A stretch of DNA of 63,208 bases, counting the filler, from Octopus bimaculoides (lineage: Eukaryota), in NCBI RefSeq assembly GCF_001194135.2. It is 4 parts of 3 records of this genome, joined end to end, with 100 filler letters (N's around TTAATTAATTAA, not from the genome) between each part and the next. Parts side by side here need not be neighbours in the genome. Positions count along the whole stretch, not along the records: positions 1 to 21,385 come from NC_068990.1; positions 21,486 to 36,901 come from NC_068994.1; positions 37,002 to 58,893 come from NC_069008.1; positions 58,994 to 63,208 come from NC_068990.1. The stretch is one strand, 5' to 3'. The notes under the pieces were generated by a model. The model saw only the letters and a list, made by a program, of their open reading frames with translations, ran no database searches and was not told where the DNA came from. How positions within the stretch are numbered: position 1 is the first letter of the stretch; each line of letters opens with the position of its first letter. The translations under genes were made by a program, and so were the position numbers. Shown here one piece after another: positions 8,132 to 59,153 of the stretch.

Positions 8132-8182
8132 TTTGTCAGTGAACAGGTCGCGGTCTCAAAGCGACGAAAATATTTTGACAAA
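8132..8182 (+). ncRNA. Putative minimal type I hammerhead ribozyme with G3-C8 swapped core
   Basis: Helix I TTTGTCA(8132-8138)/TGACAAA(8176-8182); core GTGAACA (8139-8145) plus an extra G; helix II GTCGC/GCGAC; GAAA at 8166; palindromic helix III AATATT; H17 = U8175. Confidence 0.55.
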
Positions 8183-8488
8183 TTAAATTTAAATGTTGAA
8201 GTGAATCTAACGGATTTTGTGTGTTATTTTAAATGGCTTATAAACACCTTCCATGCTGCAGTTGTTTATATATATATATATATATGCATGTATATATGTA
8301 TATATATATATATTAATTACTTATAGTGACACCATATTTCGTCTTGCACCTATAATATACTACAAAGTACATTAATCAATTTATAAGTCTATATGCTGTG
8401 TTGTATTGTGTTAGCAGTGCTATTAAATCACTTTTTAGATAGATAGATTGATATACATACATATATACATATGCATACATACATACAC

Positions 8489-8548
<60 letters not shown>

Positions 8549-8552
<4 letters not shown>

Positions 8553-8704
8553 CAAGCTTTTTTCAGTTTCCATCTACCAGATCCACTCACAAGGCTTTGG
8601 TCAGGCCAACGCTGTAGTATGAAGATATTTGCCCAAGGCGCCACACAGTAGGATTGATTCCAGCAGCATGTTGTTGGGAAGCAAACTTATTACCACACAA
8701 CCAC
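8549..8704 (-). mobile_element. SINE family A, tRNA-like 5' half
   Basis: The reverse complement reads TGGTTGTGTGGTAATAAG..TTCCC.. followed by the family-A body. Confidence 0.75.
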
Positions 8705-10256
8705 CTTACGTTTATTTTTGTTTTTAGTCTTCTGCATTTTGTATGGATTTCAAAATATCAGCAAAGTTAAATTAAGGTACTGGAACTAGTGACCCACATG
8801 GCGTTGCTTTGAAACCTTATTATAACCACTGTGTTGTATTCTTGAAGAAGGTATATAATTCCGTTTGCTGAAATTAGCCTCCACTGACAACATATTCTGC
8901 TCCAACTTCATCGCTGAATGACTTAATTCTATTATTCCAAACAAACAAAAGAAAAACACTACAATTTACATTAACAAGAAAAAAATTAAATCTAATGCAA
9001 GAAAAAAATTAATAAATAAAAATAGAAAAAGAAAAAAGAAACAGATATAAAACATGCAGACAAATATATAAAGAAAAAAACAGCAGGATGAATATGAAAT
9101 AAATAAAAATAATAAATATAGAATAGGGAGAAAAATATATATAATAAAAAATAGAAAGAAAAAAATAATTATTAAATAACAGAAAAATTAATATTAAAAA
9201 ATAAAAGAATTAAAAGAGTATAAATTATTAAAAAACTAATAAAAACAGAAAACTATAAAACAGACCAAAAGACGTGGAAATGAAATTAACTGAAACTATA
9301 GATTTCTAATTAAAGAAATATTTCCAATATTGCAAAGCTTCATGTGTTTCAATGATTTAGTTTCAATTTCAATGAGGAACAACAGCAAATGAAACTAAAA
9401 ACATAAATCAAATTAATAGAAGAAAACATATACAAATAATATAAAACAGATAGTCACAGTCATCTTCTTCATGCAAAAGATATTTAACAAAATGTTTAAT
9501 ACAAAAGTTGTTAGGATATATTAGTTTTATTTATCTTTTTATTTCTTGTCTTTTTACCTGTTTCAATCCTTAAACCTGTGGTTATGAAGTAGGGCATTGC
9601 CTTGAAGAACTTTTAATCAAATCCCAGAACTTGGTCTTTTTTTTTTTTTTTTAATCCTGGTACTTATTCTATCAGGTACGTAAATACAGCAACACTCGTT
9701 GCCAAGTGGTTGTGGGGTACAAGCACAGAAATAAAGACTCCCCCCCACACACACACAGATATATGCATTATGCTGGCGCCATGTAAAATACACTCATGCT
9801 GGTGCTGCATAAATGCACTCATGACCTCAGCAGTATTTGAACTCAGAACGTAAAGACACGAAATACCGTTCAGCATTTCGTCCAGCGTGCTAATAGCACT
9901 ATTTGGATTGACTATATTATTACAGCTCTCTCTATCTCTATCTCTCACTATATATATATATATATATATNNNNNNNNNNNNNNNNNNNNNNNNNNNNNNN
10001 NNNNNNNNNNNNNNNNNNNNNNNNNNNNNNNNNNNNNNNNNNNNNNNNNNNNNNNNNNNNNNNNNNNNNNNNNNNNNNNNNNNNNNNNNNNNNNNNNNNN
10101 NNNNNNNNNNNNNNNNNNNNNNNNNNNNNNNNNNNNNNNNNNNNNNNNNNNNNNNNNNNNNNNNNNNNNNNNNNNNNNNNNNNNNNNNNNNNNNNNNNNN
10201 NNNNNNNNNNNNNNNNNNNNNNNTATGTATATATATATATATACCGGAGTAAGCAC

Positions 10257-10304
10257 AAAACTGTCCGATGAACGGGAATGTGAAACTCTGAGTAACAGAC
10301 TTTT
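10257..10304 (+). ncRNA. Putative minimal type I hammerhead ribozyme (U4C core)
   Basis: AAAACTGT-CCGATGA-AC/GT helix II-GAAA-ACTCTGAGT-A|ACAG(AC)TTTT, followed by AATAAA. Same family as 48222-48267. Confidence 0.55.
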
Positions 10305-10447
10305 GTTATATTTCTGCTGCTTTTAAATAAAGTATGTATATATATATATATATATATATTGTTAAGGTGAGATAACAAAAAACACTACTCCATCTGTTAA
10401 AAGATAAAATTATCTTAATGTACACAATATGCAGTTACTCACTACAA

Positions 10448-10696
10448 ATAGTTTCATTCATTGGAGATGTTTTCTAGGCAGGTCTTAATAAATGCCTCAT
10501 GTCTCCAAGCAATCTTCGGGCTCTAAGTGCATGGTTTATGCAAGTTACAAATCAGGAAGATAGAACAATAGAAATCATGAGATTGTTCTGCATTGTAACT
10601 GATATAGGTTATGTGCTCAGAGCCTGGAGATTACTTGGAGACACTAGGTATGTTGCTAAAACCTACCTAGAAAACATCTGCAGAGTATGAAACTAT
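10448..10696. mobile_element. Foldback/MITE-like long imperfect inverted repeat
   Basis: ATAGTTTCAT..AGATGTTTTCTAGG..TGTCTCCAAG..GGCTCT matches the reverse complement of 10610-10696 at about 80% by eye. Confidence 0.8.
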
Positions 10697-10743
10697 TAGA
10701 AGCTTGTAACTATATACTGTATGCAATAAACTATATATATATA

Positions 10744-10902
10744 CGTCAAGCTTCATTTGGTTTCCATCTTCCAAATCCACTCACAAATCTTTGGTTGGTC
10801 TGGGGTTATAGTAGAAGATACTTACCCAAGATGCCATACAGTGTAACTGAACCCAGAACCATGTGGTTCAGAAGCAAGCTTCTTACCACACAGCCACACC
10901 TG
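10744..10902 (-). mobile_element. SINE family A, 5' half
   Basis: Reverse complement GGTGTGGCTGTGTGGTAAGAAGCTTGCTTC..ACCACATGGTTCTGGGTTCAG, carrying A-box-like and B-box-like motifs. Confidence 0.8.
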
Positions 10903-56681: not shown

Positions 56682-56753
<72 letters not shown>

Positions 56754-56756
<3 letters not shown>

Positions 56757-57045
56757 TCATATGACAAGAGAGTGGTTACCGAAAAAATTGAGAAATTTGA
56801 GAAATATCAGAACTTTGTCAGAGAGATTAAGATATTGTGGAAGATTAAGATGTTAATTATTCCTTTGGTATTTGATGCATTTAGCACGACACCCCAAAAG
56901 AATGTCCCCTAAAAGACTGAAAGATATTGGAATTGAAACTTGCTTTGTTGACCTACAGAAAAAATGGTAATTGCGTATTTTGTTAGAATCCTAAGAAAGA
57001 ATTTTTTCGAGATTTGAGGAGACTTGTTGCTATCAAACTTCATTA
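56754..57045 (+). mobile_element. Decayed 3' end of a Dong/R4-like RLE retrotransposon next to (CAA)n(TAA)n
   Basis: YDKRVVTEKIEKFEKYQNFVREIKILWKIKMLIIPLVF..LQK..RILRK corresponds to the RLE K..KY motif and C-terminus. Confidence 0.72.
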
Positions 57046-57393
57046 TATATATTTCTGCTAATTAATATAGTGTCTAATAGTTATATAATTATAATGATGA
57101 TGACGATAATAACTGTATAATAATAATAACGATGGTGATGATGATGAGGCGAAAGGGGTGTGTTCGGTGTTGAGGTATGATGCTGGTAATAAATTCCAGC
57201 AATATACGATGAGGTACCCAAAACTAACTGGAAACATTCTCCGTGGGACAAACCCTTATGGTTCAGGTTTCTGCTGCTAGGAGCCACTTTATACGATCCT
57301 CAGGCATCACTCTGCCGACCGGCGTAGTCCCGTGAGGTTGTACTGTCACGTGGTGTGTCTTTGTTTTGCAGTGCTTCTCCCCTGTTCGTTGCG

Positions 57394-58020
57394 ATGGCTG
57401 AAACGAAGAAACAGCTTACTTCCATGAAACTCTGTTTTCTGCTGGGGAAAACGGCGGCCGAAACCGTTGTCATGCTTCAGACAGCTTACGAGGATGCTGC
57501 CGTAAGCAAAACACAAGTTTACAAGTAGTTTCCACGTTTTAGGAATGGTCGCTTGAAGATCAACTTCGTTCAGAGAGACTGTCGACCTCCCGAACGAATG
57601 AAAGCATCACGAAAATTCATTAACTAATCATGGAGGATCGTCACCAAACAATTGACAAACTTGTTGATATGACTGGTGTGTTCTGAAGCTTCTGTCAATG
57701 AATTTTGAGCGAGGAATTTCCAATGAAAAGAGTTGCAGCAAAATTTGTGCCTCGTTTGCTCACAGAAGATCAAAAGCAGCCACGGCTGAATGCATGTCGG
57801 GAACTGTAAGAACAGTTGGAAGTTGATCCAAACCGTTTTTTCGAAGGTCGTCACTGGTGACGAAAGCTGGTGCCACAGGATTTACAGATGTGGAAGAGAT
57901 GAAGGAGAAAACGACAGAGGCATTATATGGCATCACTTCGCAAGAGTTCCAGGACTGCTTCGAACAGAGGAAAACGCGTCTGGATCGATGCGTTGCTTTA
58001 AACGGAGAATACTATTATTG
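57394..58020 (+). mobile_element. Internally deleted mariner transposase pseudogene
   Basis: MAETKKQ..CFLLGKTAAET..KRVAAKFVPRLLTEDQK..VVTGDESW joined directly to RFTDVEEMKEK..RCVALNGEY, with several stops. Confidence 0.88.
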
Positions 58021-58099
58021 AATGGAGAGCAGTGCATGCCATCAAAGTGACACTGCGGTTGAATATATGATAAAAGTGTCACGTAAAAAGCACTGCGTC

Positions 58100-58262
58100 C
58101 ACTCTGATGAGTGGTCGGTGTTAAGAAGAGCTTCCAGCTGTAAAAATCCTACCAAAGCAGTCACAGAAGTCTGGTACAGGCTTCTACCTGGCTGGCTCTT
58201 GTGAAACCGTCCCACCCATGCCAGCATGGAAGGCGGACGTTAAACGACGATGATGATGATGA
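58100..58262 (+). mobile_element. RTE-clade LINE 3' UTR fragment
   Basis: ..CCCATGCCAGCATGGAAGGCGGACGTTAAACGACGATGATGATG. Confidence 0.78.
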
Positions 58263-58857
58263 TATATATATGTGTGTGTATGTGTGTACACATGCATGTA
58301 TTTTTGCATTATTTTTTGCTAGTGCGATTTTCTTTTCCAAGTTATTTAAACGGCTTCTCCCCACCCCGCCACACCTATCTATTTATTGTATAATTTTATG
58401 CCTTATTTACTTAATTAGCAACAACTGAGCATTTTTACTTCAGATTGCATCAATTAGTTCAGTTGTGTTTTATTTAACGCTTTATACTTCTTACTGGTCC
58501 CATTCATTGGACTGCGGCCATGCTGGGGCATCGCCTCGAAGAGTTTTAGTTCACCAAATCCGCTTATTTCTAAATTAACAATTAGTCTTTCACAGAGAAT
58601 TTTGGTGCTTAATTCAGAGTTCGTTCACACAAGTTCTTTTGGTTAAAGTTGCCGAGAATCAGGTCACCAGTGTCCTCCATGTTGCAGTTAAGTGCGTTCG
58701 TTGCCTGACATATTTACGAAATAATGCGTACAATGGACAGAATGCTATGAATGGCTGACCTCAATTTGTAGGTGCACAAATGGTGCCAGTGTATGACTGT
58801 GTGAACACACACACATATCCTTATATATGTATATATATTTATAGATGTATGTATGTA

Positions 58858-58893
<36 letters not shown>

Positions 58894-59116
58894 NNNNNNN
58901 NNNNNNNNNNNNNNNNNNNNNNNNNNNNNNNNNNNNNTTAATTAATTAANNNNNNNNNNNNNNNNNNNNNNNNNNNNNNNNNNNNNNNNNNNNCATCTAC
59001 ACGTATAAAAGCATATATATATATATGGGAGAATATACAAAAAATAACAACAGACGAGGACAGGTGGTGTAAATAACAAAAGAATATATTAGTATGACGC
59101 TCGGGAATACGGAAAG

Positions 59117-59153
59117 TCTTTGACGTTTCGAGCTACGCTCTTCAACAGAAAGA
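59117..59153 (-). ncRNA. Putative minimal type I hammerhead variant (A6U core)
   Basis: TCTTT/AAAGA helix I; CTGTTGA plus an extra A; GAGC/GCTC helix II; GAAA; ACGT palindrome; GUC| site. Confidence 0.45.

Follow-up and report, generated by a model that had tools for sequence, protein, structure and literature searches.

Altered hammerhead cores in repeats of Octopus bimaculoides that probably derive from Penelope-like elements

A stretch of 63,208 nucleotides (nt) from Octopus bimaculoides (GCF_001194135.2), four parts joined with filler and called the window here, contains short repeats that lie close to (TA)n tracts and carry minimal hammerhead ribozymes, most of them with an altered core. 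These repeats raise the question of where they come from and how families with such cores could be amplified. An earlier note, made from the sequence alone, had seen in them a candidate ribozyme-retroelement system. The explanation we favor, with a probability of roughly 0.72, is that the repeats are derivatives of the 3' ends of Penelope-like elements (PLEs), amplified from master copies whose ribozymes were weakened or dead. Hammerheads of PLEs are already known, Octopus included; family-wide A6U and G3-C8 changes were not found in the portions of the literature covered by our search, and it is from such portions that published work is cited throughout.

The window is AT-rich, with assembly gaps and 141 rows of tandem repeats. 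A relaxed type I descriptor, permitting at most one core deviation and demanding a stem I of at least 4, a stem II of at least 2 and a palindromic helix III, finds six matches in it, versus 0.30 ± 0.46 (maximum 1) in 30 block dinucleotide shuffles; with two deviations permitted, there are seven matches versus 0.93. As the descriptor was composed post hoc, with candidates already known, this contrast is inflated; the descriptor also picked up one motif that had not been suggested (34575). All six motifs have stems I and II and GAAA/UH in a three-way type I layout, a helix III palindrome of 4-10 nt, and a (TA)≥4 tract within 14-138 nt, against a background of 28% of positions within 150 nt of such a tract. 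The five folds of the earlier note thus stand in their coordinates, core changes, stems and palindromic helix III, as does their placement at (TA)n tracts, and shuffled sequence does not yield such folds at an equal rate.

The motifs represent five families, A to E. Four have variant cores, with G3-C8 in A, U4C in B and C, and A6U in D, and E alone has the canonical CUGANGA. The best local alignment between families reaches z 2.8, in agreement with the proposal of unrelated families, although their number is five rather than four. The statement that no intact motif has a canonical core is wrong for the window, since the intact motif at 34575-34629 (plus strand) carries CUGACGA. A "system" of cooperating families is not borne out. 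An extra nucleotide after A9 together with a G10.1-C11.1 pair is present in both A and D, while E has only the G-C pair and B and C have A-U and no extra base.

The family A element, 147 nt long (8120-8266, plus strand), lies between two (TA)n tracts. Its hammerhead (8132-8182, plus strand) is of the minimal type I, with the swap of G3 (8139) and C8 (8144), an extra G at 9b, the palindrome AAUAUU and U17 at 8175. The family D element, about 190 nt (59026-59222, minus strand), abuts a (TA)n tract with its 3' end, and its minimal hammerhead (59117-59153, minus strand) displays A6U (59145), an extra A at 9b, the palindrome ACGU and C17 at 59122. Both families have a decayed relative in the window, as had been suggested for positions 60811 and 34796. 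The copy of A at 60739-60880 (minus strand) is 81.5% alike over 173 nt (z 61) and has kept G3 and C8, with positions 4-6 changed; the relative of D at 34735-34870 (minus strand, z 9.4) has a broken core.

The family-level states of A and D were derived from public sequencing runs by read mapping that covers subfamilies diverged by at most 20% from the query copy. Family D (query 59023-59215, 80% likeness) is represented by 10,786 and 9,617 contigs in two DNA runs and by 3,211 and 3,082 reads in two RNA runs, and across all four the A6U position (59145) stays free of variants at the 5% level or above. Run X1 has sixteen changes that frequent, which spare U6, C3, G5, G8, A9, G12-A15.1 and U16.1; nothing within the motif varies in DNA except position 17, where 33% have U instead of C, and U4, where 5% have A. 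Among the changes of family A at 3% or more (7,547 contigs, DNA run X1), there is neither G>C nor C>G, indicating that G3 and C8 are not reverting, with the caveat of one unplaced G>A in the DNA run and one unplaced G>C in RNA run X23, whose listing was cut short by 64 rows. The one common stem change in A, 8178 A>G (43%), retains a U-G pair. C17 is not found in this family at 3%, in line with a report (data not shown in its source, PMC3884650) that C17 makes G3-C8 less active than G17 does. The divergence of the cores is family-wide for A and D; for B, it is common to two copies.

As an order of magnitude only, summed depth divided by the depth of long unique contigs, which gives no true copy number, points to about 2-5 x 10^4 copies of A and 4-7 x 10^4 of D. 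Many reads of both families have TA-rich loose ends. CpG decay in family A is alike within the motif (G12 3.5%, C11.1 4.4%) and outside it (6.0%, 4.7%); individual copies in the genome thus seem to be neutral, with nothing that indicates a role in the host. In a second organism (run X21), no contig matched family A, which is no proof of its absence there. In viral contigs, the G3-C8 pattern has 21 matches, none of them with a stem I of at least 4, and the D pattern has none.

The RNA reads offer further observations on these two families. No RNA data set is listed as containing the query stretch, which says nothing about its expression. For family A, the 3% level is reached by A>G and T>C at 21 + 27 and 26 + 27 places, versus 3 + 1 in the DNA run; position 8208, for instance, shows T>C at about 19% versus 0.05%, and 8231 shows A>G at 18-27% versus 0.05%. 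This excess, seen between DNA and RNA of separate samples, looks as if both strands of double-stranded repeat RNA had undergone adenosine-to-inosine editing. As an origin of the core changes, RNA editing is ruled out, because none of them is an A>G on the ribozyme strand. For family D, 268 and 178 RNA reads exit at 59134, in loop II, into one flanking sequence, and likely stem from a single highly expressed locus with a truncated D copy.

A tie to a known group of PLEs comes from family B. Its first copy (B1, 10244-10336, plus strand) lies between (TA)n tracts and consists of a brief inverted segment from the 3' end of the family, followed by the hammerhead (10261-10298, plus strand), with U4C (10266), a 2-bp stem II, the palindrome ACUC-U-GAGU and A17 at 10294. 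The second copy (B2, 48121-48380, minus strand) has a 5' inverted segment, and its hammerhead (48222-48267, minus strand) shows U4C (48258), an 8-bp stem I and A17 at 48230. The copies are 89% alike, and C4 is present in both. They align to the Hydra-type 3' end in an outside locus, L140, with z 9.2 for B1 and 5.4 for B2; such similarity is undetected for A, C (z 1.7) and E (z 0.5), and D reaches z 3.1, under the shuffle maximum. The B-type pattern searched with position 4 open has four matches in three outside loci, all with U4 and three of the four ending at TA or ATT repeats, and in L140 the motif sits behind a PLE open reading frame (ORF). This outside motif is that of the Hydra-2_aMil row in File S2 of Craig et al. 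2021 (PMC8557442). Hydra-2_aMil and B have in common the stem I CUGU/ACAG, the helix ACUC-N-GAGU and A17, whereas C4 and the 2-bp stem II set B apart from the Hydra rows of that file, 26 of 26 of which have the canonical core. Judged by these alignments, family B is homologous to the 3' end of Hydra-clade PLEs. The loci L140-L142 are contigs of a bacterium-labelled genome that represent animal DNA rich in PLE ORFs; their hammerhead exactly matches that of a published coral Hydra-clade element, and they are likely host contamination of that assembly.

The surroundings of B2 hold an unbroken ORF of 649 amino acids (48752-50701, minus strand) that matches Peptidase_M4, M4_C and, weakly, the FTP propeptide. 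The B2 element lies about 370 nt past its stop and the B2 hammerhead about 490 nt past it, on the same strand, with AATAAA just 3' of the motif. The M4 peptidases are a thermolysin-like family typical of bacteria.

Family C is present as an inverted pair. The direct copy (29152-29408, plus strand) ends at (TA)n and holds the hammerhead (29183-29271, plus strand), which displays U4C (29213, in this one copy), an extended stem I, the palindrome AUCCGGAU and C17 at 29244. The inverted copy (28935-29150, minus strand) is 5'-truncated, beginning inside the core, and its 3' end reaches at least 20 nt beyond that of the direct copy before an assembly gap cuts it; the corresponding PLE criterion is a tail of 30-40 bp at one end. 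Family E, overlooked in the earlier note, has an element at 34518-34735 (plus strand) that starts at a (CT)n(TA)n tract. Its canonical hammerhead at 34575-34629 has the 10-nt helix III palindrome AUCACGUGAU, A17 at 34625 and a stem I that can be extended via an internal loop to about 34561-34643. The long palindromes of C and E are as in Hydra-clade motifs, a resemblance only.

Could the motifs be chance folds, or canonical hammerheads decayed copy by copy? In this direction point the post hoc descriptor, the occurrence of the U4C of family C in one copy, and a folding energy that is exceptional for C (z -5.1) and A (z -2.5) and not unusual for the other four motifs (z -1.4 to +0.2). Rfam covariance models, moreover, yield no hammerhead family at E ≤ 10 in any of five motif regions and none among the 150 of 322 whole-window matches listed; the Rfam microRNA matches in the window are TA/CA repeats. 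Against it stand the excess over shuffles, the fixation of the core changes over thousands of contigs in A and D, the C4 of two B loci and a published PLE hammerhead that is homologous to B. We regard this explanation as extremely improbable overall, and for A, B and D it is refuted.

The scaffold of family D occurs in outside sequences as well. Searched with position 6 open, it has 119 matches in 118 metagenome loci, with A6 in 118 and U6 in one, which suggests that A6 matters where the ribozyme is under selection. The sole motif with U6 (L072:2466-2494) is a single copy and may represent decay or an independent A6U. In four of the loci (L023, L077, L006 and L064), the scaffold lies 82-677 nt downstream of a PLE coding stretch on the same strand. 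In the coding stretch of L023, a reverse transcriptase (PF00078) occurs together with a GIY-YIG-like domain and a CxxC linker; reverse transcriptase and GIY-YIG matches are also found among the 32 database relatives of this stretch. These Neptune-type hammerheads have the core, stem II and ACGU of D behind the same set of domains; they have A6 and no (TA)n after the motif, whereas D has a fixed U6 and ends at (TA)n. A structural role of the change, in which A6U would trap D in an inactive rod, was considered and rejected: the energy gap to the active dimer is 13.2 kcal/mol, versus a median of 13.6 in 26 outside D-type motifs.

In the window itself, Hydra-type queries detect two weakly matching pieces of PLE coding sequence, both apart from the hammerhead motifs. 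A decayed, Hydra-like endonuclease C-terminus with stops and a frameshift lies at 35391-35614 (plus strand; tblastn E 0.003 for the whole window, best of 20 shuffles 0.04), with no intact hammerhead joined to it, and a second decayed remnant, of the linker region, lies at 52332-52514 (minus strand; E 0.003 for the whole window, 1e-6 in a restricted region). A tblastn search of the window with the PLE proteins from L023, L077 and the 32 relatives gave nothing credible (a single match, E 0.028).

Taken together, a PLE origin of the repeats is supported by the homology of B, the D scaffold behind PLE ORFs, the TA junctions and the 5' inversions. Inverted segments, as the earlier note had claimed, are found in B1, B2 and C, each of which starts with an inverted piece of its own 3' part. 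Craig et al. 2021 (PMC8557442) describe a preference for (TA)n in the Hydra and Octopus Naiad PLEs and list 5' inversions among PLE insertion features; their Hydra-clade elements, including Hydra-1_Obim and Hydra-2_aMil, combine (TA)n insertion with a 3' hammerhead of 8-10 nt palindrome, 5' inverted copies and a tail at one end. In A, B2, C and D, the hammerhead lies 91-164 nt from the 3' end, which is likewise PLE-like.

Several observations weigh against this origin or against our reading of the cores. Family A lacks an outside homologue that would link it with PLEs, the assignment of C and E is by layout alone, and the link between D and PLEs is a common 22-letter scaffold, not family homology; (TA)4 within 200 nt downstream is found in 0 of the 119 outside D-scaffold matches. 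No PLE ORF lies next to any hammerhead in the window, and no mobilising partner was found for any family. Four of the six motifs are unremarkable in folding energy, and dimer structures can be drawn for all motifs, with a double hammerhead at minimum energy only for the core of C. The unchanged cores are not significant on their own, as there are few variable sites.

The lack of an adjoining PLE ORF would also suit ordinary short interspersed nuclear elements (SINEs) or miniature inverted-repeat transposable elements (MITEs) that acquired a hammerhead-like piece and were moved by a non-PLE enzyme, and the annotation of Octopus vulgaris does hold 893 recently active unclassified SINE families (PMC13282606). 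The sequences, however, display neither evident tRNA-like heads nor poly(A) tails, the inversion breakpoints are variable rather than fixed terminal repeats, and the distance of the hammerhead from the 3' end is that of PLEs. This makes a SINE or MITE origin hardly probable.

The joints between copies bear on another alternative, that of non-LTR retrozymes (LTR, long terminal repeat), in which monomers of 150-250 nt would be cut from tandem arrays and spread via circular RNA. The unit sizes of 150-260 nt with one type I hammerhead apiece agree with it, and metazoan retrozymes, which are also short and non-coding with a single type I hammerhead, are reported as likely derived from PLE pseudo-LTRs (Cervera and de la Pena 2020, PMC7229834; bioRxiv 10.64898/2026.07.22.740005). 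In two RNA runs, 4 and 5 reads link the end of D to its start, but they do so via a TA tract between the copies, away from the cleavage site. Family A shows many strand-inversion joints with differing breakpoints, and among 15 of 21 joints listed, 14 are strand inversions and none is head-to-tail; for D, no inversion joint is among those listed. A possible excess of inversion breakpoints near the A cleavage site (8172-8182) comprises few reads, could be explained by the symmetry of stem I and was not used. Retrozymes in the sources cited have canonical cores, lie head-to-tail in arrays and are accompanied by abundant circular RNA, whereas the window copies are solo or inverted, without head-to-tail tandem monomers, and have variable cores. 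Of the suggestion that the families are PLE-derived or retrozyme-like, the first part is therefore retained, while a retrozyme mode of spread appears quite improbable.

If the repeats derive from PLEs, do their variant cores still cleave? In two RNA runs (unstranded, about 6% of each read), there is neither a depth step nor a pile-up of read ends at the cleavage sites of A and D, and among the joints listed for both families none lies at the cleavage site, in libraries ill-suited to small circles. The uninterrupted depth across these sites is compatible with little cleavage, without proving it; an active PLE hammerhead likewise gave no cleavage read ends (PMC11167929).

Variant cores could nevertheless be working ribozymes that the elements need, with a protein, dimerisation or another metal ion compensating for the changes. 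The G3-C8 swap takes two changes and leaves the base pair in place, which suggests that catalysis was once under selection, and the common subfamilies of A and D have retained intact stems and palindromes. The dimer of the C core is predicted to fold as a double hammerhead at minimum energy (gap 0.0 kcal/mol). Among natural variants, U4C has lowered activity but is sufficient for a viroid to be infectious, and A6C cleaves slowly in Mg2+ and well with Mn2+ (PMC3088659, PMC7151607); in a purified lizard PLE, cleavage requires protein, a single C3G or G8C abolishes it and the double mutant partly rescues it (PMC11167929). Against a need for working ribozymes speak the unmarked cleavage sites of A and D, the conservation of A6 in the outside scaffold, and the lizard PLE itself, the one in vitro system, where insertion is independent of cleavage. 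We consider such a need unlikely. Somewhat less doubtful, and still to be taken only tentatively, is the broader proposal that the genome hosts a number of PLE lineages with G3-C8, U4C or A6U fixed in their hammerheads, two of these lineages numbering tens of thousands of copies, and that the hammerheads remain able to cleave in their native context, whether through dimers, PLE protein or Mn2+.

Amplification from masters with attenuated or dead ribozymes, which we prefer, would proceed as follows. The repeats would be 3'-end (pseudo-LTR) pieces of PLEs, whose reverse transcriptase and GIY-YIG endonuclease likely nick (TA)n and copy RNA that bears the element 3' end. Each family may have been founded by a master copy with a changed core and then amplified; its members may be non-autonomous, non-coding units or else truncated ends of elements that do code for proteins. 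Insertion would take place from uncleaved RNA, so that a slow ribozyme would cost little; hammerhead mutants of the lizard PLE insert normally from uncleaved RNA (PMC11167929), which explains how weak cores can be amplified. The G3-C8 core with U17 is predicted to be compensated and partly active, U4C to be slowed and A6U to be nearly inactive. For cleavage to occur at all, a dimer would have to form through the palindromic helix III, and the protein of the element would probably be required too. By analogy, we expect the activity to follow the order E > A > B, C > D, an order borrowed from other hammerheads, for which A6C, not A6U, was among the tested variants found.

In comparison with known systems, the families resemble the PLE minimal hammerheads of Cervera and de la Pena 2014 (PMC4209133), which are likewise of type I, with a short stem I and a palindrome at 15.2-16.2, and which show, like A and D, the extra nucleotide after A9 and G10.1-C11.1. 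The elements described there are mostly solo copies, with some opposite-strand pairs and many families per genome, as here. None of the 44 rows compared, out of 56 in its Fig. S3, has C4, U6 or G3-C8, and the portion of its supplement that was searched gave no Octopus entry; its descriptor fixed the core, so missing variants are not proof of absence. The five exact A-E motifs were not found in the supplement of PMC8557442 as searched, where FASTA line breaks could hide a match, and the families are accordingly not the Octopus ones listed in it; the one Octopus Hydra hammerhead published there has a canonical core. Published lists of hammerheads were made with canonical descriptors, and A-E may already have been catalogued.

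As for the core variants themselves, U4C (viroid), A6C (phage Bcep176) and U3-A8, the last a natural 3-8 covariation among PLE hammerheads (PMC4209133), are rare in nature and have reduced or altered activity (Perreault et al. 2011, PMC3088659; PMC7151607). In the literature as searched, which did not cover Lunse et al. 2017, Repbase or Dfam, G3-C8 appears only as an engineered variant and A6U was not found. Known core variants are isolated examples, whereas A and D are animal repeats of very high copy number with a variant as their consensus state.

The window contains further features apart from the hammerhead families. Two arrays of C2H2 zinc fingers lie at 46007-47057 (plus strand, about 12.5 repeats of 84 nt) and 38383-39189 (minus strand). 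The stretches 14579-15574, 4215-5016 and 30315-30572 comprise mariner-type transposase remnants (Transposase_1 match at 15059-15571) and a short ORF without a Pfam match, which resembles the C-terminus of a non-LTR element. A stretch of 138 nt is duplicated at 100% identity (785-922 and 1315-1452) on both sides of a gap and is likely an assembly artefact. Inverted-repeat structures without a hammerhead match, possibly MITEs, are found at 10415-10729, 13448-14358 and 37002-37237.

What do these repeats mean for the biology of PLEs? Searches for canonical cores and Rfam models miss four of the five hammerhead families in the window, and published counts for invertebrates are hence likely low. 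No new class of element and no host function is indicated. The role of the PLE hammerhead is an open question: it may merely parasitise these elements (Craig et al. 2021, PMC8557442), and it is dispensable for insertion in vitro (Frangieh et al. 2024, PMC11167929). The presence of a canonical family next to very high-copy ones whose core changes are fixed opens this question to testing. If the variant cores cleave, they would provide a natural series for testing whether the speed of the ribozyme helps, hinders or is irrelevant to the amplification of PLEs.

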